DNA of 64,000 bases from Bradymonadales bacterium (GTDB taxonomy: Bacteria > Myxococcota_A > Bradymonadia > UBA4248): the NCBI GenBank assembly GCA_041656175.1, contig JBBAEA010000001.1, forward strand, positions 7,559 to 71,558, in the 5' to 3' direction. The position numbers and the translations under genes are program-made. This document shows, in pieces, positions 1 through 61,698 of this stretch. Within the stretch, counting starts at the first letter, position 1. Every line of letters begins with the position of its first letter. The notes under the pieces are model-generated. The model saw nothing but the letters and a program-made list of their open reading frames with translations, ran no database searches and was not told the origin of the DNA.

Positions 1-145
1 TTTCGATGCTCCGTATGCAGAGGTCCCTTAAATTATGCGACATTTTAGGCTACAGCGCGCTTAAGCAGAATATTGTTAGGCGTCTCCAGAAAAGCCAAAT
101 CTTCTCTCAGCCCGATCTGTAAGCAGAATCCTATTGCTTTTTTTT

Positions 146-288
146 GTGGGGGAGTGCCCCCTACGCGCGGGCTTCCTCGTAAATATCACAATTCGCGCCT
201 TATTTTGTGCGCTGGATGGCATGCATTCCATCCAGCGCACAAAATGCGCTCATTGTGATATTTCCTCGGCGATCCCGCGCTACCCCCC
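146..288. repeat. MITE-like element, family 1 (GGGGG-N-CCCCCTACGCGCGGGCTTCC ... long internal palindrome ... GGCGATCCCGCGCTACCCCC)
   Basis: Terminal GGGGGagtgCCCCCTACGCGCGGGCTTCCTC. Internal hairpin with an ~18-bp stem TTTTGTGCGCTGGATGGCATGCATTCCATCCAGCGCACAAAA. Terminal CCTCGGCGATCCCGCGCTACCCCCC. Confidence 0.85.
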
Positions 289-590
289 AAAAAACCAAAC
301 TGAGTTCGAACAAGCCAAGATAGCCTTCCACTCTTTACTCTAGCTGCTATTTCACTGCTTTTGCATTTAGCAAAGTTTCCCTAAGTTGATAGCATTTTGG
401 GGTTTTGCTTCCTACAAAAGTTCTCATTTTGCAAAAACTTGTGTCGTTTTGTGAAGTTAACTTCACTATTTCTAGCCGTGCAAAGGTCTCATTTATGGAC
501 TTTATTTTTGACCTTCGCTCGACTTTACTGAGCTTACGCTAAGGTTTTTGATTGTTTTTTTCATGGTTCAGAGCGTGTCTAGGAAAATTT

Positions 591-2276
591 TTAGCGTTGT
601 TGGTAGCCGCTACGCCGTCGTAAGACTAAGAGCATGCTAAGCATAAGTGCTAAGAAAAACGCAAATTTTGCAGGCAATCGCGTGCGATGATGGATTTGGC
701 AACCACAACTATGCGCAATAAGCATTACATCGGCGAGCTCGCCTTCTTCAATGATGACATCGACTTCTTCGCCGCTTTCGCTGTCTATGCAAACACCGTC
801 TTCGTTACAATCTGAACCTTGCGGACAGGTGCCACAAACACCACCGCAACCATTGTCGGCGCAAGAATTCTCAGCGCATTGGGGTACACATACGCATTGA
901 CCTTCAGCGTTACAGCCTAAACCGTCTTCGCACTCTCCACAGCTACCGCCGCAAGCATCGTCACCGCATGTTTTGTTTTTGCAATAAGGTTTACATGGGC
1001 GACAAAAACCGTCTACACAGGATTCTCCCGTTTCGCAGCTACCACAACTTCCTTCACAACCATCGGATCCACAATACTTCCCATTACAATCTGGTATGCA
1101 ACTGCAGCTTCCCTTTATACAACTAGAACCTTCAGAACACGTACCGCACAATCCACCACAACCGTCGCCTCCGCAATTCTTACCCTCACAGTTGGGCTGG
1201 CATTTGCATTGTGCATCGACACATTCAAAACCTGTATAACAACTACCGCAAGTTCCACCACAGTTGTCGGGACCACATTCCTTTCCATCGCAGTTGGGCT
1301 TACACACGCATTGACCAGCACTGCAAGTATGCGTTGCCGGGCAAGTGCCGCACGTGCCACCGCAAGCGTCATCACCACATGCTTTTCCCGAACACTGTAC
1401 TTGGCACACGCACTGACCGGCGCTGCATAAGTGGTTTGCGGGGCAAGTTCCACAGCTCCCCCCGCAACCGTTTGGGCCACAGTTTTTGCCCGAGCACTGC
1501 GGTTGACAAATACATTGTCCAGAGCTGTTACAGTTGTGGTTTGCGGGGCAATTTCCACAGCTACCTCCGCAACCGTTTGGGCCACAGCTTTTGCCCGAAC
1601 AATTTGGAGTACACTCGCATGTTGGAGCTGGTAGGCCAAGATAAGCACCTTGGCTGACCCAGTAAGTGAGCGAACCACCGCAACCTGGAGTTGCTTTATA
1701 AGGGTCATCGTTACCATAGTTAGGTACATTGACACCAAAATGCAGGTGTGGTCCCGTAGAGCAGCCAGAGCTTCCGACGCGTCCCAATTCTTGGCCACAA
1801 CTTACTCTCTGGCCTTTGCTAACCTTTACAGTGCCCTTTTTCATGTGGCAGTAGATGGTTTTCTTCTTGTCGTCATGCTGAATTTGCACGTAGTTGCCAC
1901 AAGATGTGGCAGCACCGCAGTGTTGATTTCCTTGAACTGAAGTTTGGCGATCATAATATCCATCGGCAGTTGCTATGACTACCCCTGGGGCGGCTGCAAC
2001 GATGGGACGGCTGCCATTGCTATCCATCCCCGCAAAGCCACCTATTCCGTAATCAGTTCCTGTGTGCTGGTCGTAGGTTTTATATTTACAGTTCCAATCT
2101 CGTGTTACGCCCCCACTTCGGTTGAGATCATAGTAGGCTGTAATGTAGCATCCACCGTAATTATTACACTCGCTTAGCGGCAAACGATACTGTTGCGCAA
2201 AGGTGGAGGAAGCCCATAAACTAAGGGCAAAAATAAAACATGTCGTAGCAAGGAGAAAGCGTAAATTATTCATCAT
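591..2276 (-). CDS. Secreted M23 (LytM-type) metallopeptidase with ~10 tandem Cys-rich modules and a MYXO-CTERM-like C-terminal tail
   Basis: N-terminal signal peptide (MMNNLRFLLATTCFIFALSLWASSTFA). M23 motifs HxxxD-like (QHTGTDYG) and the SGCSTGPHLHF Zn-binding histidines. About 10 repeats of a ~36-aa module C-x-P-x-C-x-G-K-x-C-G-x-x-G-C-G-G-x-C-G-x-C. The C-terminus SCGCQ + hydrophobic stretch + RRR resembles a MYXO-CTERM sorting signal. Confidence 0.7.
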   Translation of the reverse strand: MMNNLRFLLATTCFIFALSLWASSTFAQQYRLPLSECNNYGGCYITAYYDLNRSGGVTRDWNCKYKTYDQHTGTDYGIGGFAGMDSNGSRPIVAAAPGVVIATADGYYDRQTSVQGNQHCGAATSCGNYVQIQHDDKKKTIYCHMKKGTVKVSKGQRVSCGQELGRVGSSGCSTGPHLHFGVNVPNYGNDDPYKATPGCGGSLTYWVSQGAYLGLPAPTCECTPNCSGKSCGPNGCGGSCGNCPANHNCNSSGQCICQPQCSGKNCGPNGCGGSCGTCPANHLCSAGQCVCQVQCSGKACGDDACGGTCGTCPATHTCSAGQCVCKPNCDGKECGPDNCGGTCGSCYTGFECVDAQCKCQPNCEGKNCGGDGCGGLCGTCSEGSSCIKGSCSCIPDCNGKYCGSDGCEGSCGSCETGESCVDGFCRPCKPYCKNKTCGDDACGGSCGECEDGLGCNAEGQCVCVPQCAENSCADNGCGGVCGTCPQGSDCNEDGVCIDSESGEEVDVIIEEGELADVMLIAHSCGCQIHHRTRLPAKFAFFLALMLSMLLVLRRRSGYQQR

Positions 2277-3076
2277 TATTTCTCCTTTAAAGCTTCAGCC
2301 TTAGCGGTTTTAAAGTTAATCTTCCACCATTCTCCAGCCCCCGCGTCGTAGACCAAAGTATCATTATCTAAAAACCTCATACCCTCGGTATTGGCGACTA
2401 CGGGTACGAAGCGCGCCCCAGCAATATCACTCGGGGCTAGCCCTTGGTTCGTAATTTGTCGTAAACCCTCGCCGTTCGCATTGACGCCGTACCAAGACGC
2501 GATGCCGCTGCGAGTCGATATGAAATAGATCGCATCACCGTGTGGCGAAAAGATGGGAGTACTGTGCTGCCCATCGCCTTCAATAATAGTCGCAATTTTT
2601 TGCCCACTACGACTTTTGATGTACAAAGCGGAAGATTCCATATTGGGATCTAGCTGCGAAACTACAAAGCGCGAACCCAAGTTGTCGATAGCAAAATCGG
2701 CATAAACCTCTTCTGCAATAGTGGCGCCTTTGCTAAGATCCATAAGTTTTCCATCTTTAACAGCGAAGGGCTCATCTTTATCGTTAAAACGGACTCTCTC
2801 CGCGCGTTCAATAACGAGCTGTTTTTTACCATTCTTGCCGATAATATAATAATCAGACTTTACTCGTTCGGGGCCATATTCTAGCCTCTGTTGATCGCTT
2901 ACTTTGAGTAGGTGGCTACCATCGCGCAAAGTGGCCTGAATTTTTAACACTTTGCCCGGTACTAGTTGTGGGATCACGAGGTTCTCGGCATATGCCGACG
3001 AAGCTGCATCACTAAAGCCAAGCGCCAAACCCGCAATAAGCGCTGCGGTGAGAACAAAAGATAGTCTTAGACTCAT
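2276..3076 (-). CDS. Secreted PD40/TolB-like beta-propeller repeat protein
   Basis: Signal peptide. Repeats of the PD40 type (TPIFSPHGDAIYFISTRSG). Overlaps the start of the downstream M23 gene by 1 nt (TAATG), which suggests an operon. Confidence 0.45.
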   Translation of the reverse strand: MSLRLSFVLTAALIAGLALGFSDAASSAYAENLVIPQLVPGKVLKIQATLRDGSHLLKVSDQQRLEYGPERVKSDYYIIGKNGKKQLVIERAERVRFNDKDEPFAVKDGKLMDLSKGATIAEEVYADFAIDNLGSRFVVSQLDPNMESSALYIKSRSGQKIATIIEGDGQHSTPIFSPHGDAIYFISTRSGIASWYGVNANGEGLRQITNQGLAPSDIAGARFVPVVANTEGMRFLDNDTLVYDAGAGEWWKINFKTAKAEALKEK

Positions 3077-3106
3077 AAGATGCCTCCTCCTGTGCTAGGG
3101 AAACTC

Positions 3107-3270
3107 AGATTTATTTTGGGGCTCCGCCCCAAACCCCGCTAAGGGCGATAGCCCTTAGAACCCTTTTTTTGCGTACTGCTTGATTTGATTGACTTTATTT
3201 TAAACGCTCGCCTAGTTTTCCTTACTTTGCTCTAGTGACTTTTTGACCATTTTTGTATTGATCAGAGCGT
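3107..3270. repeat. MITE-like element, family 2 (TIR about CTCTGATTTAT/ATAAATCAGAG; internal hairpins GGGGCnnnnGCCCC and CTAAGGGnnnnnnCCCTTAG; AT-rich AAAATAAAGTCAATAAAATCAATA box)
   Basis: AGGGAAACTCAGATTTATT ... GGGGCTCCGCCCCAAACCCCGCTAAGGGCGATAGCCCTTAGAACCC ... TATTGATCAGAGC. Confidence 0.7.
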
Positions 3271-3473
3271 CACTAAGGAACTCATAGGTAAGTATGCTCA
3301 ACAACATAGTTCCCATTCTAGCAAACGCACTTTTCCAAACATCAGTGTAGCGAAGTTATAACTCAATTGCTAGCGATTTTTTGAACAGTTGTACAAAGGG
3401 CAGCAGCCAAAAAGCAAAACAAAATGACGGCAACACAATGATTACGAAAAGCACGCCATGGTTCATACAGCAA

Positions 3474-3494
3474 GGGCAGCTATGAACGCTGCCC
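3474..3494 (-). terminator. Candidate stem-loop immediately 3' of RNase J
   Basis: GGGCAGC-tatgaac-GCTGCCC is a 7-bp GC stem. On the minus strand it is followed by a short T-containing tract, so it is weak. Confidence 0.25.
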
Positions 3495-3499
3495 CTTGA

Positions 3500-5206
3500 T
3501 TATACGAATTCGAAGTGAACGATAACATGTGGGAACTTGCCCAATTTTTGTTTTATTATTTTTGCGGCTTTATGGCGTATAATCTCTTGCATATCGCCGT
3601 GCTTAGCCGAACTAATGATAGTTCGCTTAAGCTCATCCTGCATATCTTTGAGGAAGGATTTGTCGCTGCTAATGCCAAACTCCTCAATTCGCAGCTCTCC
3701 GCGCAATTGCTCATCTTTATTAAGCGCCCCCCCGACAAAGAGCATACCGTTGTGGCCTAAAACTTTTTTTTCGCGGGCGCAGTCGCGATCCATGCCATCT
3801 AAAGATTTACCCACGACGTATCGTCGCGAGGGGATGAAGCTTTGCTCCAACTCGTGTCTGTCTGAGAAAAGTTTTAAAGTATAGCCTTCCTCTATGGTTA
3901 TTGAGCGATCTGGTGAAGGTTGCATATCATCGGCTAGCGCTTCATGCATGCTCAAGCGGCGGTAGTCGCCGTGTATGGGTACAAATATTTCGGGTTCTAG
4001 GAGTTCGATCAATAATTCGAGTTCCTTGCGACCGCCGTGTCCCGAGCTATGGAATACAGCGTCTCTTGGGTTAAAAAGGGAAGCGCCTTGACGGTAGAAG
4101 CCATCGACAATCGCGCCTACGCGCTTTTCGTTACCTGGGATCTGGCGAGCCGAGTAAATCAGTGTATCGCTAGGACGCAAGCGAATATTATTGTGTTTAG
4201 CCTGCGATAACTTGTAGAGGCTTGAGGCGCGCTCACCTTGGGAGCCCGAGATAACAACAACGATGTTTTCGCCAGCTTCTTCAATCTTGTGTTCGGCAAC
4301 GATTTCCATGTCGTTTGGCATGCTAAAATAGTTCAGCTCGCGCGCGATACCGAGGTTGGAGTTTAGCGAGCGCCCGCAAACGGCAATTTTGCGATTCGCC
4401 GCTGCCGCCGCTGTAAAAATAGATTGCAAGCGTCCGATGTTTGAAGCAAAAAGCGTGACAAAGATTCGTCCCTTTAACTTTGTAAAAACTTCTAACAAAT
4501 CGTTGTAAATATCGAGCTCACTGGCCATGGCGTCGTCGACTTCGACGTTTGTGCTATCGGCTAAAAGTACGCGCACTCCCTCATCACCAAGCGCTTCGAG
4601 TCTTGCTAAATTCGTCTTGGCGCCTGCCATCGGTGTGTTATCTATGCGCCAATCTCCCGAGTGTACGATGGTTCCCGCGGGTGTGTAAAAAGCGTACGCT
4701 ACGCTACCCGGAATAGAGTGGCAAACGTCGATGCACTCCACACGGCAATCACCCAAATTAAACTCTTCTTTGGTGTTGATCACATTAAACAATACGCTCG
4801 ATAACAACTCATGCTCCGTTAGCCTACGCTTTACGAAAGCTAGCGTAATGTCGGTGCCGTAAATAGGCATCTTCCCGCGAAAGCCTCTTTTTTGCATTGT
4901 TTTGAGTAAGAAGGCGATCGCCCCAATATGATCTTCGTGCGCATGCGTTAACACAATGCCGTCCAAAGGCTGTGTTTCCAGAACACTAAAATCTGGCGTG
5001 ATAAGATCCACCCCCCAGTCATCGTCGGCGGGGAACATGATGCCGCAGTCAACCAATATACGACTTTTCGCACTTTCTAGCAGCATGCAGTTCATGCCAA
5101 ACATGCCGCTTCCCCCGATCGATGTGATCTTGAGCAGCGCGTTGTCCTCTGTTTTCTCTCTTCCTTCCCTTTTCTCTTCTTCCATTATCTCTCTTGAATT
5201 TTGCAA
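3500..5206 (-). CDS. rnj: Ribonuclease J (beta-CASP MBL-fold RNA-metabolising hydrolase)
   Basis: HAHEDHIG metallo-beta-lactamase motif, beta-CASP region, and a length typical of RNase J. The N-terminal poly-E stretch may mean the true start is internal. Confidence 0.85.
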   Translation of the reverse strand: MQNSREIMEEEKREGREKTEDNALLKITSIGGSGMFGMNCMLLESAKSRILVDCGIMFPADDDWGVDLITPDFSVLETQPLDGIVLTHAHEDHIGAIAFLLKTMQKRGFRGKMPIYGTDITLAFVKRRLTEHELLSSVLFNVINTKEEFNLGDCRVECIDVCHSIPGSVAYAFYTPAGTIVHSGDWRIDNTPMAGAKTNLARLEALGDEGVRVLLADSTNVEVDDAMASELDIYNDLLEVFTKLKGRIFVTLFASNIGRLQSIFTAAAAANRKIAVCGRSLNSNLGIARELNYFSMPNDMEIVAEHKIEEAGENIVVVISGSQGERASSLYKLSQAKHNNIRLRPSDTLIYSARQIPGNEKRVGAIVDGFYRQGASLFNPRDAVFHSSGHGGRKELELLIELLEPEIFVPIHGDYRRLSMHEALADDMQPSPDRSITIEEGYTLKLFSDRHELEQSFIPSRRYVVGKSLDGMDRDCAREKKVLGHNGMLFVGGALNKDEQLRGELRIEEFGISSDKSFLKDMQDELKRTIISSAKHGDMQEIIRHKAAKIIKQKLGKFPHVIVHFEFV

Positions 5207-5341: not shown

Positions 5342-5491
5342 GGGGGGTAGCGCAAGATCACCCGCAGAATCGGCATCTGAGCGCATTTTTTGCGCTGGAT
5401 GCGCGGATTGAGCGCATACAGCGCAAAAAATAGTGCGCGAAGCCGCCGATTATGCGGGAAGCTTGCGCGTAGGGGGGCAATGTTGCCCCCC
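5342..5491. repeat. MITE-like element, family 1 (subtype with the GCGCATTTTTTGCGCTGGATGCGCG...CGCATACAGCGCAAAAAAT core)
   Basis: Shares both termini (GGGGGGTAGCGCAAGATCACCC ... GAAGCTTGCGCGTAGGGGGGcaatgttGCCCCCC). Nearly identical to the copy at 48842-48990. Confidence 0.85.
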
Positions 5492-20577: not shown

Positions 20578-22521
20578 CTACTCCAAAACAAAGCCCTGCC
20601 TCAGTTCTATGTTCTCGCCTTCAAAGGCTTGGAACACCCAGCGATCTTTCTTAGCATCTAAACAATTGAGAAAGTTCTGCGACACTTGCTTTGAATCTAC
20701 TTTATAGCTTTTAACCGTTCCGTTTGGCTGAACTACGATGTTAATATAGATCTTTGAAACAGAAGCTTGCCCCATTTTGAGTTCTCTTTTGTGGCACTCT
20801 TGTATGGTTCTTGATACCGATTTAAGGCCGCTGTTAAAGGCTAGTCTATCACTTTGCCCTGGCCGTTTTAGACCTGCGTATTTAGAGGCTTGTACAAAAT
20901 TTGTAGCATCGCTTTGTTGAATGGTTTTGGGAATAACTTGTATAGAATCCCGGCGCCCTAAGCTAGGTAAGGCTGCGGAATTGGCGAGTTTAGAGGGTTC
21001 TGCGTCTGCATTTGGGAGTTTTGAGCCGTTCGCGCTGTTTGCATGAGCGTTTGCTGTATTTTGCCTTGCATTGCCATTACTGCGCTCTGGTTTTGTGTTG
21101 TAGTGGATATTTTGTGTAATGATTTCAAAATCGTCTTCAGGCGTGTAGCGGCTGAGCTCATCTTCATCGACGTAGGAACCTTCAACCGAAGCAAGGCTTC
21201 GATCGATGTATTGTACCTGTGTAGGCTCTTCGTCGTTTTTAAGAAAGATGAAGGCAAAGACTCCTATACCCACGACGCCTAAGAGTAAGAAGGCTAAAAT
21301 AAATAAACGTCGAATTTGCTTTCTTTGTACATTTTGCAGATGTTCGATTTGCAGCAGCATGGAGTGCTCTGCGCTTGGAAGTGGCTCTAGATCTTCCTCC
21401 GCTTCTCGCAGGAGGTCGATTTTTGCGAAAATATCATCGCTCTGGCGTACACTTTTCTCTACGGTGGAAACTCGCGCGACTTCATTGCTATCGCCAAAAA
21501 CTATGCGTTTAATCTCTTCGCTGTCCAGCGCTTTGTTCGGCGAACTTTTAAACTCTTCGCTTGGATTTGTAATGGCGTCGATCTCTTGTTGGGAATACAC
21601 TTGGGTGCTTTCGTCTAGATCAATGGCATCTAGCAACCTATCGCTTGGTTCTATCGAAATTGCCTCATCACCTTCCCTTGAGGTCTCTACAGCATCGCTT
21701 TGAGCAATGGTAATGACATCGCTCTCTTGGCTGGCGAGATCTATGCTGATTTCATCGATATCTAAAAACTTGTCCTCGAGTTCCGTATTGATCTTAAGTT
21801 CTTCCTCTATCGATACGTCGAGGCTAATTTCGGGCAGGCTGATGTCTTTTAGTCCTTGAATACTGGGGCTAGAGTTTTGGCTTGAGTTAGCTTCACCCAA
21901 GCGCGCCAATTCTTCTAAACCGATGCCAGAATCTGTGCGACGCACAGCATCAAAGTTTGTGCTCGGTGTTTGTTCTAGGCGATTTTTTAGCCCCGCGATA
22001 TTAGGTTTTGAGCGCCGCAGTACATCTTTGCCACTTGAGCTAGGGCTAGGCGAATTGAGAAGTGGCGGCAGTGAGTAGCTCGAACTTTTGGACAGAAATG
22101 GAGCAGGTGGTGGTGGCGGTGGCGGCGGTTCGTTTTTGGCGAGTATTGCACTGCTAAAAGCTTCTACTTCTAACGCGGGCTTCCACTCAACTAAACTTTT
22201 GTGCCACACAAAACTTGATTCCGGCGCTTCGCCAGTTTCAAAGCGTTGAATCAGTTCATCTTTGCGAAAAGGGCCTCGACTCTCGCCGTTAACGGAAAAA
22301 TACCAGTCTGCCAGCGAACGCGTTGGCGAAATGGCGGGACGTGCGGATGAACTCCTCCACTTTTCAAGTTTTTTGCTCGTCTCTTCTTTGACGTTTGCGA
22401 GATCTACTCGCATCAATATTTGGTTGTCGCAATGACGACATTGCAAGCGCACTACCGACTTAACGATTTTTTCATCGGGGACAAGATACGAGGCTTGGCA
22501 CTGATCGCAAACTATCCGCAT
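20578..22521 (-). CDS. Zinc-ribbon (MJ0042-type) / GYF-like (DUF4339) / TM / AgmX-PglI-like C-terminal domain protein
   Basis: N-terminus CDQC...CRHC. GYF-like DWYFSVNGESRGPF...WHKSLVEWK. Proline tract and a long acidic disordered region. One TM with N-in topology. The C-terminal ~80 aa resemble an AgmX/PglI or TonB-C-like domain. Confidence 0.6.
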   Translation of the reverse strand: MRIVCDQCQASYLVPDEKIVKSVVRLQCRHCDNQILMRVDLANVKEETSKKLEKWRSSSARPAISPTRSLADWYFSVNGESRGPFRKDELIQRFETGEAPESSFVWHKSLVEWKPALEVEAFSSAILAKNEPPPPPPPPAPFLSKSSSYSLPPLLNSPSPSSSGKDVLRRSKPNIAGLKNRLEQTPSTNFDAVRRTDSGIGLEELARLGEANSSQNSSPSIQGLKDISLPEISLDVSIEEELKINTELEDKFLDIDEISIDLASQESDVITIAQSDAVETSREGDEAISIEPSDRLLDAIDLDESTQVYSQQEIDAITNPSEEFKSSPNKALDSEEIKRIVFGDSNEVARVSTVEKSVRQSDDIFAKIDLLREAEEDLEPLPSAEHSMLLQIEHLQNVQRKQIRRLFILAFLLLGVVGIGVFAFIFLKNDEEPTQVQYIDRSLASVEGSYVDEDELSRYTPEDDFEIITQNIHYNTKPERSNGNARQNTANAHANSANGSKLPNADAEPSKLANSAALPSLGRRDSIQVIPKTIQQSDATNFVQASKYAGLKRPGQSDRLAFNSGLKSVSRTIQECHKRELKMGQASVSKIYINIVVQPNGTVKSYKVDSKQVSQNFLNCLDAKKDRWVFQAFEGENIELRQGFVLE

Positions 22522-48841: not shown

Positions 48842-48990
48842 GGGGGGGTAGCGCAAGATCACCCAAAGAATCGGCGATTTAGCGCATTTTTTGCGATGGA
48901 TGCGCGGAACGAGCGCATACAGCGCAAAAAATAAAGCGCTAAACAGCCGATTATGCGGGAAGCTTGCGCGTAGGGGGGCGTGTGCCCCCC
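48842..48990. repeat. MITE-like element, family 1 (near-identical to 5342-5491)
   Basis: GGGGGGGTAGCGCAAGATCACCC ... GCGCATTTTTTGCGATGGATGCGCGGAACGAGCGCATACAGCGCAAAAAATAA ... GGGAAGCTTGCGCGTAGGGGGGcgtgtgCCCCCC. Confidence 0.9.
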
Positions 48991-49520: not shown

Positions 49521-51131
49521 ATGAGGTTAGTTTGTAGCAGTTGTAGCGCGGATCACTGGTTGCCAGACGCGTATGTCTCAACAGGTGAGACTTGTTTGGT
49601 AAGTTGCCCCCGTTGCAGTTCATCGATTATGGCCAGTGCGGCGATGATGGACGCATCAGCGGGCGAAGCTTTGTGGTACGCGGTGCTTAACGGTGCTGAG
49701 GGCGAGTCAAGTGAAAGCCTGCAAGTTGGGCCTGTCTCGCAACAAGATATCGAAGCCTATTATCTGGCTAGTAAGCTGAGCATGGACTCCTACTTATGGC
49801 GCGATGGCTACGCTGACTGGGTACAGTTAAGCGGTGCGCCAGAGTTTGGCTATCTCAACTCCTTAGTCGAACCGGTTGGTGGGGGTGGCGAAGAAACACG
49901 CGTTGTTCTCACACAGAGCTTTGGCGGCGAGGATGCGACCCAAGCCATTGACGTGTCGGATTTAGGAGGCAGCTTCGCTCAAGCCGACCCCTACCAAGGA
50001 GGTGGTGGTTTCGCAGCTTTTGGAGCCGGCGCTATCTCCAACATGACGGGCGCGCCAGTACAGGAAGCTGTAGAAGAATTTAGCTTCGATATGAGCCCGC
50101 CCGCGAGCTCCGCCCATGATGACGGTGGCTTTGGAAGCGCGAACGATTTAGTTGGTGCGCGTAGTGAGAACTCTGTTTTGTTCAGCCTTAGCAATTTGCA
50201 GGCTGTTAGCGCGCGTGTTACCAAAGGCGCCAGTGAAACTCCCGTCACCGAAGGCTCCGGCCTCATCGACGTCAAAGCGCTCGCCGCCTCCGGCCCCTCT
50301 CCTCGCCGGCGCTCCTTTGAGCAGGAAAGCTACCAAGCCGCCCCCGCCCTTAGTGCCGCGGCTATGCTCCCGCTCGGCAACCGAAAAGACAACACCCCCA
50401 TTATTATTGCCATTGTCGCTGCCGTTGTAGTGTTCGTTGCCTTTACCATCGTGCTTATTGTTCTCTTGAGCAAAGACGACGATGCGCTCCCAGTGCAGCA
50501 AGCTCAAGTCGATATGAACGTCGATACTAGCAATTTGGGCGTAGTCGCCAAAAACACCGCTCCACCCGCTGCTGTCGCCGATGTGGACAGCGCCAAACCA
50601 AGTGAAGAGAATAAAAAGGAAGAAGCCGCGCCTGAGGCTGACAAGGACGAGAAGGCTGAGCAAGAAGCTGAGCCCGTTGAAGAGAAACAAGAGCCTGAAA
50701 AGGCAGCGGAAAAACCCGAAGCTAAACCTGCACCTAAACCTGCACCTAAACCTGCACCTAAACCTGCACCTAAACCCGCGCCCAAACCAGCGCCCAAACC
50801 CGCGCCCAAACCAGCGCCTAAACCAGCGCCCAAACCCGAACCTGCTCCCAAGCCTGCTGGGGCTACACTCAGTAAGGACGAAGTCCAATCGGTTATCCGT
50901 TCCAACTTTGGGCAAATCCGAACTTGCAGCCGCACCTCGACGCAAAAGGGTACGATGCGCGTCTCCTTCGTGATTAAGGGCAACGGCCGTGTGAGTAACG
51001 CTCGCAACCTTAGCAAGGAATTTGCCAATACTCCTACCGAATCTTGCGTTCTCAAAGTCGTTAATGGCATGAAATTTAAGGAAACTGGCGGCGCCGACAT
51101 CCCCATTACCTACCCGTTCTCTATTCAATAG
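49521..51131 (+). CDS. Zinc-ribbon (MJ0042-type) / GYF-like / TM / (PAPK)n spacer / AgmX-PglI-like C-terminal domain protein
   Basis: CSSCSADH...CPRCSS. GYF-like YLWRDGYADWVQL. One N-in TM. A 12-bp tandem repeat encoding about 10 PAPK units. The C-terminal domain is similar to that of the 20578..22521 protein (a TonB-like layout). Confidence 0.6.
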   Translation: MRLVCSSCSADHWLPDAYVSTGETCLVSCPRCSSSIMASAAMMDASAGEALWYAVLNGAEGESSESLQVGPVSQQDIEAYYLASKLSMDSYLWRDGYADWVQLSGAPEFGYLNSLVEPVGGGGEETRVVLTQSFGGEDATQAIDVSDLGGSFAQADPYQGGGGFAAFGAGAISNMTGAPVQEAVEEFSFDMSPPASSAHDDGGFGSANDLVGARSENSVLFSLSNLQAVSARVTKGASETPVTEGSGLIDVKALAASGPSPRRRSFEQESYQAAPALSAAAMLPLGNRKDNTPIIIAIVAAVVVFVAFTIVLIVLLSKDDDALPVQQAQVDMNVDTSNLGVVAKNTAPPAAVADVDSAKPSEENKKEEAAPEADKDEKAEQEAEPVEEKQEPEKAAEKPEAKPAPKPAPKPAPKPAPKPAPKPAPKPAPKPAPKPAPKPEPAPKPAGATLSKDEVQSVIRSNFGQIRTCSRTSTQKGTMRVSFVIKGNGRVSNARNLSKEFANTPTESCVLKVVNGMKFKETGGADIPITYPFSIQ

Positions 51132-51151: not shown

Positions 51152-51376
51152 AGGGGGCTTTTTGCCCCCTACGCGCGGGCTTCCTCGCAAAATGTGACAA
51201 CGAACGCTTTATATTGTGCGCTGTATTTGCTAGTCGCGCATCCAGCGCACAATATGCGGTTCGTAGCACATTTTGTGGAATGTGTGCCAATCCATGGCAC
51301 ACAGCCCTGCGGGCCGCCTGCGGCGTTCCCTTTCGACTTCCATGTCGAAACGAGGCGATCCCGCGCTACCCCCCCC
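51152..51376. repeat. MITE-like element, family 1 long variant (about 225 bp) with an extra internal hairpin
   Basis: GGGGGctttttgCCCCCTACGCGCGGGCTTCCTC ... TTGTGCGCTG.../...CAGCGCACAA ... TTCGACTTCCATGTCGAA hairpin ... GGCGATCCCGCGCTACCCCCCCC. Confidence 0.85.
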
Positions 51377-58791: not shown

Positions 58792-61698
58792 TTGAGATGT
58801 AAACACTGTAATGGCGAATTACCAAGCGAGCGGAAGCTGGACTTGTGCCCGCATTGCGAGAGACGTGTGGAGTTGGCTTCCTACACCGCCGACCCCAAGC
58901 AGGGGCTTGAGCGCTTGGAGCGGGAGAAGCTAAATTTTCTTAAAAAATCGTCGACTATCTCAAAGTATGAAGCGGAGAACATCAAGCGTTTTGCTGTCCC
59001 AGAGCGTAGAGACGAAGTTGAATTTACGGATTCATTCGATTTTGGCGGTCCCACTGAATTTAGCGTGGCGCCTAGTTTTGGTGCTACTGACGTATTTAGC
59101 GAATTCAACGACTTTGCGCCAAGCTCTGATTTTGGCGCCAGCAGCGAGTTTGAGCATTCTACGCAATTTGGCCTTCCGCTTGCGGACTACCAAGATGGCG
59201 ATGAAGTCGAGGATGGGGAGTCGTACGATTTTGGGGGCGCTACGATCTTGGAGCCGGGCTTAGGTCTTGGGCTTTTTGCAGAAGATCAAATTCAAGAAGA
59301 AAACGCGCAGTCCCATGAAGACGGCGAGAGCGATCCAACGCAAACGGACTGGTATAGATTTAGTAAGCCCGCGGAGCTACTAAGCGAGGACGTCATCAAG
59401 GCGAGTTTGGGGCGAGGGAGTGTTGAGGCTACGCCGAGCTCTAGCCAAGAGCAGCTGTCTCGGGATATGACGACGCAGGAGAAGCTACCGTGGGCTTTGG
59501 ATCGCGCGAGTAAGGCACCCCAAAAAGCAGAGTCACAACGTTTTTCGGGAGCAAAAATTTTGCGTCCCGTCAAAATTGTTCCTCGAAGCCAGCGTGCAGC
59601 CAAAGACCTTGTACAAAAAGACCTTGTACAAAAAGACCTTGTACAAAAAGACCTTGTACAAAAAGACCTTGTACAAAAAGACCTTGTACAAAAAGAGACT
59701 AAAACCGACGAGGCGATGCGGAACTCTTTGTCGGCACTTATCCCAGAGGCGAGCGTAGAAGAATACGATGCGAATTTCACGGCACTGCAGTTCAAAGTCG
59801 CTAAAACTGCTGAGCGCGAGCCTGTGCGGCAAGAACTAGACGATACTGCCAAGCTGCGAAATAGCTCTCTTTCCGACATCGTAAGCGTAACAGAGCCGGA
59901 TTTACTGAAGGAGGGAGCCGATGGATTTAGGGCGAGCGTTCTAGAAATTGATGAAGCAGATTTGCAGGAAGTAGACGCTAGCGACGAATTTACGCACAGC
60001 AGCGAAGCCGAAATTGAACAGCTCTCCGAACTCAAAACACTCCTACCTGATTCTCCGGATTTCTCTGCCTCACTCTCTGATCTCAAAACCTTGCTCCCCG
60101 ATTCCGCCCAACCGCAACTCGCGCTGGAGCTGCCATACTCACCGCGCAAGGAATTAGTGCGTGTATCCGCGGCAGAGAGCGAGTTTTCTTTACAAAATGA
60201 CGACGCCGAAGCTGAAGAAAGTTCAGGTATTGAAATTCTCCCACAAGTTGAAGAAAAGCTACGTGCTAACCTAACTCCCTTCCTTTGGCTTGGGATCTTT
60301 GCCCTGTTATTTTTAGCATCCTTACTACTTCTTTACTTCCTCGGCTATTTTGACGCCCGTCGCGGACATGCTCCCAAAAGCAAAGAAGGGCAGCGCGTCG
60401 AGGTTGAGCAGGAGGAGCCAGAATCAAGATTGCCGCGCGAGGATATTTATAATCTCGAACGCGCTACGCGCCGAGCGTCTGAATCCGCACACAGAGCCTT
60501 TGATTTTCAAGCGCATCTCTTGCCCACCCTCATCAAAAAAGCGCAAGAGGCTCAAAACGCCGACGAGGCTATCTCGCACTGGGCCAATGCCCACGCGCTT
60601 TTCCCGCACTCTCTGCCCGCCATTCACGGTTTAGGCAATGCCCTCATTCAAGCCAAACGCTACCGCGAAGCGCGCGAGGCGCTACGGGCTTCGCAAGACG
60701 CCATCGCTTTTGACGAAGAGACCCAAGCCCTTGTCCTACGCGCTTTTCGCGAAGACCCCTATTTCATTTCGCCGCCAGAATACATCGACGACCTACGCTG
60801 GGATGTCATCGATCCCCTCGGCGGCGGTTCCACTCTAACCTTCAAAATCCAAAATAAGGGCAAAATCATCGCAGCCCTCAAACCCCTCCAAACTCGCCGA
60901 CAATCCAACTACCGCGCAGAAATTGCGGCGTGGCGCATCTGCGAATTGCTGCAATGCGACTTTAAAGTTCCGTATAACAAAGAAGTTCGCGTTGAAAAAT
61001 CCGTCTTTTTGACCATGTATTCACGCTCCACCTCCAGCCGAAAAGATAGCTATACCCCGCAATTGGTCGATTTAATCTGGACGCGCCACGATGGCAAGGA
61101 ATACTTACACGCCACCTTAAAAGAGTGGATCGAGGACTTTACACGCTTCCCCATCGAATATACTTCGCTTTGGAAGCCATGGCTTGCACAAAATTCAGCG
61201 CCCGCTCCAAGCGAACTTAAAAATTCACTCGCCCCTATTCAAGAGCGCAGCCGAATTAATCGCCTTTACGACAAAATCCTCGCCGCCGCCCCCGATCTCG
61301 ATACCCAAGGCTTAGCAGCCCAAATCGCACAAGTACTCATCTTTGACTACCTCACGGGCAACTGGGATCGCTTTAGCGGAGTGGAGGATTGGTGGGGCGT
61401 CAACTGCCAATTTGCCAAAAACAAAATTGTTTCAATCGACAATGGCGCCGCTTTCCAGCCATATTCAAACAAAAAGGTTCTGGAGCGTTTTCTACTCGCT
61501 CAAAAGTACGGCCGGCGCTTTATTCGCGACCTTCACGCTTTGGACAAAGACGAGACCTTGGCTTTGCTTTTCCCCGATGCAGATTCACGTGAACTGCGCA
61601 GTTATGAACAATTTTGGCGTCAGCGCAGCGCGCTTTTGGCGCATGTTGACTCGCTGGTCGAGCAATACGGCGCCGAAAACGTTTACGCCTTCCCCTAA
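58792..61698 (+). CDS. Zinc-ribbon / acidic disordered region with KDLVQ x6 repeat / single TM / C-terminal type II PI4-kinase-like (PI3_PI4-kinase superfamily) domain protein
   Basis: N-terminus CKHCNG...CPHCERR. A 15-bp tandem repeat x6 at 59602-59691. TM LTPFLWLGIFALLFLASLLLLYFLGYF followed by a basic stretch. The C-terminal domain motifs GGGSTLTFKIQNKGKIIAALKP, LIFDYLTGNWDRFSG and IVSIDNGAAF match the PI4KII signatures GSSGSYFVKD.GRIIAVFKP, LDYIIRNTDRGNDN and AIDNGLAFP. Confidence 0.6.
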   Translation: MRCKHCNGELPSERKLDLCPHCERRVELASYTADPKQGLERLEREKLNFLKKSSTISKYEAENIKRFAVPERRDEVEFTDSFDFGGPTEFSVAPSFGATDVFSEFNDFAPSSDFGASSEFEHSTQFGLPLADYQDGDEVEDGESYDFGGATILEPGLGLGLFAEDQIQEENAQSHEDGESDPTQTDWYRFSKPAELLSEDVIKASLGRGSVEATPSSSQEQLSRDMTTQEKLPWALDRASKAPQKAESQRFSGAKILRPVKIVPRSQRAAKDLVQKDLVQKDLVQKDLVQKDLVQKDLVQKETKTDEAMRNSLSALIPEASVEEYDANFTALQFKVAKTAEREPVRQELDDTAKLRNSSLSDIVSVTEPDLLKEGADGFRASVLEIDEADLQEVDASDEFTHSSEAEIEQLSELKTLLPDSPDFSASLSDLKTLLPDSAQPQLALELPYSPRKELVRVSAAESEFSLQNDDAEAEESSGIEILPQVEEKLRANLTPFLWLGIFALLFLASLLLLYFLGYFDARRGHAPKSKEGQRVEVEQEEPESRLPREDIYNLERATRRASESAHRAFDFQAHLLPTLIKKAQEAQNADEAISHWANAHALFPHSLPAIHGLGNALIQAKRYREAREALRASQDAIAFDEETQALVLRAFREDPYFISPPEYIDDLRWDVIDPLGGGSTLTFKIQNKGKIIAALKPLQTRRQSNYRAEIAAWRICELLQCDFKVPYNKEVRVEKSVFLTMYSRSTSSRKDSYTPQLVDLIWTRHDGKEYLHATLKEWIEDFTRFPIEYTSLWKPWLAQNSAPAPSELKNSLAPIQERSRINRLYDKILAAAPDLDTQGLAAQIAQVLIFDYLTGNWDRFSGVEDWWGVNCQFAKNKIVSIDNGAAFQPYSNKKVLERFLLAQKYGRRFIRDLHALDKDETLALLFPDADSRELRSYEQFWRQRSALLAHVDSLVEQYGAENVYAFP

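Follow-up and report, generated by a model that had tools for sequence, protein, structure and literature searches.

A sorting-pathway model with an experimental basis in Myxococcus xanthus describes how the C-terminal MYXO-CTERM tag sends proteins to the surface of the cell (PMC11980579). The tag has been reported on 3-73 proteins per genome. Bradymonadales carry abundant MYXO-CTERM proteins together with a myxosortase type of their own, MrtP, and the hidden Markov model (HMM) of the tag loses sensitivity between lineages, for which lineage-specific models are needed (Haft, 10.1101/2023.06.07.544157). In TraA, Cys-rich repeats have been proposed to form a rigid stalk that presents a head domain (PMC3325183). 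Secreted M23 peptidases serve in predation in Lysobacter (PMC12510463) and in Pseudoalteromonas (PMC6962226), in both cases on Gram-positive prey, and secretion of pseudoalterin requires the secretion system of type II (T2SS; PMC6962226). Here, we analyzed a stretch of 64,000 nucleotides (nt) from a Bradymonadales bacterium (GCA_041656175.1, contig JBBAEA010000001.1, positions 7,559 to 71,558 of the forward strand), the whole of which is hereafter called the window. Close to its start lies a gene whose product joins an M23 peptidase head, a Cys-rich stalk and a sorting-type C-terminal tail, preceded by the gene of a TolB-like partner.

In the reading that we favor, and to which we give an even chance, the M23 protein would be a surface-displayed, contact-range peptidoglycan endopeptidase, tethered to the cell and provided with a periplasmic partner. 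We consider it the best reading because Bradymonabacteria are described as predators (PMC7460792) and because other Gram-negative predators export M23 enzymes. The functions proposed in an earlier note written from the DNA alone, a predation weapon or cell-wall remodeling among them, are inferences. The features on which the argument rests are the following.

591..2276, minus strand: open reading frame (ORF) of the M23 protein, 561 amino acids, stop codon at 591-593
2196..2276, minus strand: signal peptide, residues 1-27 (MMNNLRFLLATTCFIFALSLWASSTFA, then QQ), of the Sec/signal peptidase I type by inspection
1614..2195, minus strand: M23 (LytM-type) zinc metallopeptidase domain, residues 28-221 (PF01551)
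786..1613, minus strand: eight tandem 8-Cys modules, residues 222-497, from a regular-expression parse
714..785, minus strand: acidic linker, residues 498-521 (DSESGEEVDVIIEEGELADVMLIA), read from the sequence
594..713, minus strand: tripartite sorting-type tail, residues 522-561, with Cys signature, transmembrane (TM) helix and Arg cluster
2282..2287, minus strand: Shine-Dalgarno sequence AAGGAG of the M23 gene, 5 nt upstream of the first ATG and within the last codons of the partner gene
2276..3076, minus strand: upstream partner, a TolB-like (PD40) β-propeller of 266 amino acids without Cys, from its ORF and a profile search

The ORF occupies exactly the position given in the earlier note, and the 1-nt overlap with the partner gene is equally real: the TAA stop of the partner (2276-2278) and the first ATG of the M23 gene (2274-2276) share one A in the sequence TAATG. 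The partner is translationally coupled to the M23 gene. A second ATG follows at 2271-2273, at which one database record of the protein (P0001, 560 amino acids) begins. Export is suggested by a helix predicted at residues 2-21 in a full-length AlphaFold2 (AF2) model, as well as by the N-termini of the orthologs, which in a 17-homolog alignment line up with that of the M23 protein and possess hydrophobic cores. The full-length model, built from a 17-sequence alignment, is poor (mean predicted local distance difference test score, pLDDT, of 55) and was used only for the terminal helices. A lipoprotein N-terminus was considered and rejected: the ATTC at residues 10-13 is no lipobox and precedes the hydrophobic core.

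Peptidase_M23 (PF01551) is the sole Pfam domain found in the protein, over residues 88-184 (E 2.6e-19; 69.6 bits, the cut-off being 28.7), which places the head in the M23 family as the earlier note had proposed. In a PDB search, the solved M23 chains 9gy1, ShyA, lysostaphin, LytM and zoocin A match the M23 stretch and no other part of the protein, with a best E of 5e-12. The full zinc and catalytic set is present, namely H71-T-G-T-D75 for the HxxxD motif, the third His at H144, and H177-L-H179 for the HxH motif, and is invariant across 17 homologs (alignment A1); the active-site substitutions that the earlier note had named as fatal to its proposal are thereby ruled out. Judged by these residues, the head is apparently catalytically competent. 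It also holds ten Cys, conserved among the closer orthologs, and a subfamily-specific motif, GCY[VI]TAYYD, in the N-terminal part of the M23 domain.

Some LytM factors are degenerate: EnvC and NlpD lack the zinc and catalytic residues. The head shows weak NCBIfam similarity to NlpD (E 9e-5) and EnvC (E 0.076), as would be expected of a catalytically dead regulator of that kind which activates amidases; with H71, D75, H144, H177 and H179 all in place and invariant in the family, we consider this explanation extremely improbable. The nearest named NCBIfam relatives of the head are the endopeptidases ShyA, MepM and DipM, all far under their cut-offs. As a separate observation on the same domain, many Myxococcota RpoC records list a precomputed Pfam Peptidase_M23 (PF01551), absent from the record of the window's own RpoC, and this annotation probably reflects a shared fold motif and not a peptidase.

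The partner begins with a signal peptide (MSLRLSFVLTAALIAGLALGFSDAASSAYA, then E). Taken alone, its sequence matches PD40, TolB and Tricorn_N weakly, the PD40 score being 14.6 bits against a Pfam cut-off of 20.9. A profile built from eight partner orthologs matches the TolB propeller 7mx5 (E 2.3e-15) and Atu1656 (2ojh; E 2.8e-15) in the PDB, with several blades aligned, so that the PD40/TolB-like nature assigned to this protein in the earlier note holds at the level of the ortholog profile (E 2e-15). The partner is not TolB itself: TIGR02800 matches residues 148-212 alone, with 23.8 bits where the cut-off is 343.15. At 266 amino acids, against the 400-440 of TolB chains, the partner is too short, its matches are confined to propeller blades, and the TolB N-terminal domain is lacking.

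The gene pair is strictly conserved. The partner gene lies directly upstream of the M23 gene in all 11 loci examined (seven M23 loci from a genome collection and four found from the partner family), usually abutting it or overlapping it by 1-4 nt. A search with the partner family returned about 23 proteins of 254-296 amino acids, and at the four partner-family loci that were looked up the M23 gene follows directly, with a 4-nt overlap in each. The rest of the M23 protein varies, as four loci with other C-termini illustrate.

L086, 4876-5970: M23 locus with another C-terminus
L087, 4849-5919: M23 locus with another C-terminus
L088, 4855-5478: M23 locus with another C-terminus
JGI 3300071358 contig: M23 locus with another C-terminus

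Across these four loci, the M23 protein ends in Golvesin_C (PF25275) twice, in SH3_3 once, and once in nothing beyond the head (207 amino acids). It is the catalytic head that the pairing tracks, and neither stalk nor tail. Because the cassette occurs with differing M23 C-termini, the stalk and tail can be regarded as an add-on to a conserved two-gene core. This TolB-like/M23 cassette appears undescribed in the libraries and papers searched, and a literature search on M23 peptidases, immunity proteins and β-propellers returned nothing relevant. Two partner orthologs from high-GC Myxococcota (GC, guanine plus cytosine content), at L014 8922-9920 and L010 2831-3826, carry a lipobox (…GAGC and …FASC, respectively) and by this motif are probably lipoproteins, unlike the window's partner with its plain signal peptide.

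In the main alternative reading, the M23 protein would be an inner-membrane-anchored periplasmic autolysin, in which the tail would be a plain anchor, the stalk a spacer lifting the head to the cell's own peptidoglycan, and the partner a regulator or adaptor, as for LytM factors working with Tol-Pal in division; the role would then be wall remodeling or daughter-cell separation. We judge this alternative rather unlikely. The conservation of the pair where the M23 protein is anchorless or carries SH3 or Golvesin_C suggests a periplasmic core pair, and the names found nearest to the head, ShyA, MepM and DipM, albeit far below their cut-offs, are those of housekeeping endopeptidases. The partner itself fits less well, as the missing TolB N-terminal domain and the score of 23.8 bits against the TolB cut-off of 343 indicate; the tail, treated below, bears on the same question.

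Between the head and the linker, modules start at residues 222, 257, 291, 325, 359, 393, 428 and 463, each with eight Cys in the spacing C-x3-C-x4-C-x4-C-x3-C-x2-C-x5-6-C-x4-6-C. The tandem Cys-rich array that the earlier note had placed after the M23 domain is thus present, in somewhat different dimensions: eight modules instead of about ten, 34-35 amino acids long instead of about 36, and a DNA autocorrelation that peaks at 102 nt, and next at 105 nt, instead of a periodicity of about 108 bp. The modules are also far from near-identical, with pairwise protein identities of 40-77% (mean 52%) that reside mostly in the Cys/Gly scaffold. Similarity at the DNA level is limited to modules 1-3 (66-77%), the only ones detected by Tandem Repeats Finder (period 105, 2.2 copies).

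The module is widespread. From 1331 modules in 230 fetched proteins, we derived the family consensus CxPxCxGKxCGxDGCGGSCGxCxxGxxCxxGxCV. An exhaustive HMMER search with the repeat region among 1.84 billion cluster representatives retrieved 3,924 proteins with an E of 1e-3 or lower and 2,066 with an E of 1e-10 or lower; as these are representatives at 50% identity, at least 3,900 protein clusters contain the module, and the proteins bearing it range up to 4,581 amino acids. In other proteins, modules are joined to TIG, PPC, Laminin_G_3, FGE-sulfatase, peptidase M43 and other heads. With E values of up to 10 allowed, neither Pfam nor NCBIfam has a match to the repeat region alone, and 101 diverse two-module units taken from homologs gave no meaningful match to a Pfam family. 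TIGR04201, the Cys-rich repeat of TraA, is touched by one of these 101 units, at E 0.055, in agreement with the view of the earlier note that the module differs from the described Myxococcus repeat.

A structure prediction of the repeat, as the earlier note had suggested, was made for modules 2-3 with AF2 and the 101-sequence module alignment, and reached a pLDDT of 92.4. The model has no significant structural neighbor in the PDB or in BFVD, a viral library; its weak best matches are epidermal growth factor (EGF) pairs of the low-density lipoprotein (LDL) receptor and LRP2, the EGF of thrombomodulin, and hirustasin. The modules are presumably disulfide-bonded. Surface proteins of uncultured Myxococcota appear to employ the 8-Cys module commonly, as a stalk or spacer. 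Its family, abundant and devoid of a Pfam or NCBIfam model, appears undescribed in the libraries and papers searched. An abundant 34-residue, 8-Cys module merits a family model of its own.

Past the linker, the tail begins with H-S-C524-G-C526-Q and continues with a spacer, QIHHRTRLPAK, a TM helix from F538 to L552, the Arg cluster R553-R555 and six more residues; AF2 places a helix at 536-555. The SCGCQ, hydrophobic helix and RRR read by the earlier note at the end of the protein are all there. The layout is that of MYXO-CTERM: an extreme C-terminal position, a Cys signature, which in MYXO-CTERM holds an invariant Cys and often reads GCGC, a helix without charge or Pro, and an Arg cluster. 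The host lineage agrees as well, the NCBI labels placing the sequence in Myxococcota, which include the Bradymonadales. Several higher-GC orthologs with the same head and modules have tails that pass the MYXO-CTERM model TIGR03901.2 (P0006, 25.5 bits; P0007, 20.5; P0012, 25.9; P0108, 28.2), one further ortholog tail passes the older model TIGR03382 (21.8 bits), and one ortholog bears the JGI name "MYXO-CTERM domain-containing protein". The signature Cys is kept in the tail of every tail-bearing homolog examined, and the Cys-x-Cys pair in most. A Cys/helix/Arg tail terminates 53 of the 230 proteins that bear the repeat, most of which 53 have non-M23 heads; because the same repeat and Cys-TM-RRR tail occur on many other head domains, the tail behaves as a portable signal.

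Several observations weigh against a sorting tag of this type and against surface display. The isolated tail scores 7.2 bits with TIGR03901.2 (E 6.6; cut-off 20), and the whole M23 protein gives no match to this model; in the HMM search proposed by the earlier note, the tail is therefore below the cut-off, so that the tripartite Cys/TM/Arg layout of its MYXO-CTERM-like tail stands and HMM membership does not. A charged, Pro-containing spacer of 11 residues (527-537) separates the Cys signature from the helix, which is atypical of MYXO-CTERM. The tails of the closest relatives, from low-GC metagenome-assembled genomes (MAGs), also fail TIGR03901.2 (two without a match, the others at 14.4 and 12.1 bits), and these relatives also have Pro within the tail helix. 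When the two groups of tails are aligned with hhalign, only the 9-residue CGC signature is matched (probability 84%). No second tail-bearing protein was found in the 64-kb window, and no CPBP protein or myxosortase in the window extended by 5 kb on one side and 10 kb on the other, about 79 kb of genome. The window is also part of GCA_050942795.1, contig JBMNNZ010000001.1, and the myxosortase search comprised a Pfam scan of ten window proteins (for most of which one or more TM segments are predicted), both flanks (5 kb before and 10 kb after the window), and two motif screens of all 88 loci. The partner-M23 pair also exists with the anchorless M23 protein of 207 amino acids, and because of this version the pair may have a housekeeping periplasmic role. 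A surface-held M23 head, moreover, cannot reach the peptidoglycan of intact Gram-negative prey.

The score below the HMM cut-off, together with the failure to find a myxosortase in about 79 kb, speaks for a periplasmic autolysin on a plain anchor. A plain anchor would leave unexplained, on the other hand, both the Arg cluster and the signature Cys kept by tail-bearing homologs, and orthologs have bona fide MYXO-CTERM tails, of the kind that in M. xanthus leads to the cell surface (PMC11980579). The stalk-plus-tail design is, in addition, common to proteins with extracellular-looking heads, such as PPC, TIG, Laminin_G_3 and peptidase M43. From the sequences of the tail and its relatives, we conclude that the tail is probably a diverged, lineage-specific signal of the MYXO-CTERM type, one that we do not count among the members when the HMM is the criterion. 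As the HMM test failed, this assignment rests on the tails of the orthologs, the lineage label and the portability of the tail. The diverged tail form of this clade appears undescribed in the libraries and papers searched. As a consequence of such drift, the surface proteomes of low-GC Bradymonadia-like MAGs are probably under-counted, since a drifted MYXO-CTERM escapes the curated HMM.

For a surface-displayed enzyme, the route to the surface can be proposed by analogy with M. xanthus. The M23 protein would be exported via Sec, its head carried by a stalk that extends over eight modules and leads into the acidic linker. The TM helix would first retain the folded precursor in the inner membrane, as in M. 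xanthus (PMC11980579), and the signature Cys would then be lipidated, as in the same pathway. A myxosortase, for which MrtP is the type expected in the lineage, would next cut off the helix, and the T2SS would then carry the protein over the outer membrane. The C-terminus would finally tether the protein and the M23 head would be kept off the cell, where it could cleave peptide cross-links in exposed peptidoglycan of neighbors or prey. In the periplasm, the partner would most plausibly bind the catalytic head and act either as an inhibitor for self-protection or as a chaperone; binding is suggested because the association with the head is strict, and this is the weakest step of the scheme. The sequences show the domain architecture, the intact active site, the anatomy of repeat and tail, the orthology with MYXO-CTERM proteins and the conserved gene pair; lipidation, cleavage, export, substrate and the role of the partner are inferred.

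The same tail could instead be a transient export or processing signal, the M23-stalk protein being shed or placed in outer-membrane vesicles and acting, as lysostaphin, LasA and pseudoalterin do, at a distance. TraA lacking MYXO-CTERM does go to the medium through the T2SS (PMC11980579), predators do employ secreted M23 enzymes, and the acidic linker, which precedes the tail in a region of low confidence (pLDDT < 50 at residues 510-534 in the full-length AF2 model), could be a cleavage site. Release nevertheless seems quite improbable to us: the role of MYXO-CTERM that experiments support is retention at the cell surface (PMC11980579), a long rigid stalk fits a tethered protein better than a diffusible one, and a second processing site is without support.

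The component parts of this surface-displayed enzyme are known in kind: M23 peptidases, MYXO-CTERM tags and Cys-rich stalks have all been described, and relatives are already named by database pipelines. A more ambitious possibility, unlikely in our estimation and offered tentatively, is that the propeller and the M23 enzyme would form an unrecognized Myxococcota enzyme/self-protection (or chaperone) pair, whose enzyme would in this lineage have been mounted on rigid 8-Cys stalk modules of a new and very widespread family, with a diverged Cys-type tag, to serve as a contact-range, surface-displayed predation weapon. The strict propeller-M23 pairing suggests a way for a producer to manage a wall-cutting enzyme in its own periplasm, and bears on bacterial predation as well as on enzybiotic design.

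With respect to lineage, the proteins of the window's contig are named by NCBI after a "Bradymonadales bacterium" for RpoC and as "TolB family protein [Bradymonadia bacterium]" for the partner; the Bradymonadales/Bradymonadia assignment is the depositor's label and not a phylogeny of this analysis. RpoC of the window's contig and RpoC of Lujinxingia litoralis share 69% identity. The nearest M23 loci in the genome collection, which did not include the window's own genome, belong to Myxococcales or Myxococcota MAGs, and two short Logan contigs also encode an identical M23 protein. Of the five closest M23 orthologs, three (L006, L007 and L008) come from MAGs of roe deer omasum, water buffalo rectum and the gut-style-coded isolate Cu122P3bin5. 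These gut-type sources, together with a GC content of 47-56%, hint that the clade could be a host-associated branch of Myxococcota.

Within the M23 gene, three further ORFs, at 1115-1798 (minus strand), 1211-1657 (plus strand) and 1650-1940 (plus strand), are most likely frame artifacts of the Cys-repeat-rich coding region and were not retained as genes. No RNA gene was detected when the window was scanned with Rfam and for tRNAs, and a promoter and terminator scan of positions 1-3600 gave counts no better than chance. The window also contains intergenic palindromes resembling repetitive extragenic palindromic (REP) elements, at the following sites.

181-263, intergenic: REP-like palindrome site
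5386-5430, intergenic: REP-like palindrome site
15003-15044, intergenic: REP-like palindrome site
48887-48931, intergenic: REP-like palindrome site
near 51238, 53010 and 56999, intergenic: single arms of the REP-like palindrome

Two sites carry the hairpin (TTTTGTGCGCTGGATGG / CCATCCAGCGCACAAAA) in perfect form and others in diverged form. Its arms have 11 matches at no more than three mismatches, where chance would give 0.27. Downstream of the M23 stop codon, at a distance of about 330 nt, stands one copy nested within a longer inverted repeat. Elsewhere in the window, three ORFs at 20578-22521 (minus strand), 49521-51131 (plus strand) and 58792-61698 (plus strand) encode large proteins with a Cys-x2-Cys zinc-ribbon-like N-terminus; Pfam assigns Zn_ribbon_4 and GYF_2 to the first, and the other two were judged from their first residues only.

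Some familiar systems help to locate the M23 protein among known designs. Producers of wall-degrading enzymes may encode their own protection: Bdellovibrio Bd3460 is the self-protection partner of the DD-endopeptidase Bd3459. As in that couple and in effector-immunity pairs, a wall-degrading enzyme here adjoins a small secreted protein that could neutralize it. The partner differs in being a PD40 propeller instead of an ankyrin-repeat or other known immunity fold, and in lying upstream and being translationally coupled to the enzyme gene.

Lysostaphin, LssL of Lysobacter, pseudoalterin and the LasA/β-lytic proteases share with the M23 protein a complete M23 active site, export and, among them, a Gram-negative producer. 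These secreted bacteriolytic enzymes are soluble and usually carry an SH3b or similar wall-binding domain; the M23 protein has no wall-binding domain and has in its place a Cys-rich stalk, an anchor and a conserved propeller partner. The stalk modules themselves recall EGF-like and antistasin-type modules in their length of about 34 amino acids, their eight Cys, their terminal β-hairpin and their tandem arrays.

The MYXO-CTERM/myxosortase system (MrtX, MrtC and MrtP; TIGR03901 and NF040914) is approached in the tripartite C-terminal layout, in lineage and in the orthologs that pass the model, and is departed from in the 7.2 bits of the tail, in its basic, Pro-containing spacer of 11 residues and in the cognate sortase, not found in about 79 kb. 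The closest overall parallel in design is with TraA (MXAN_6895 of M. xanthus), the prototype MYXO-CTERM protein. Both have a type I signal peptide, an N-terminal head, Cys-rich repeats and a Cys/TM/Arg tag, and both have the gene of a dedicated envelope partner next to their own (PMC3325183, PMC11980579). They part in the head, which is PA14 lectin-like in TraA and an M23 peptidase here, in the repeat, TIGR04201 there and the 8-Cys module of 34 amino acids here, and in the tail, which fails the MYXO-CTERM HMM in the M23 protein; the partner, finally, is the OmpA-domain protein TraB in the one case and the upstream TolB-like propeller in the other.

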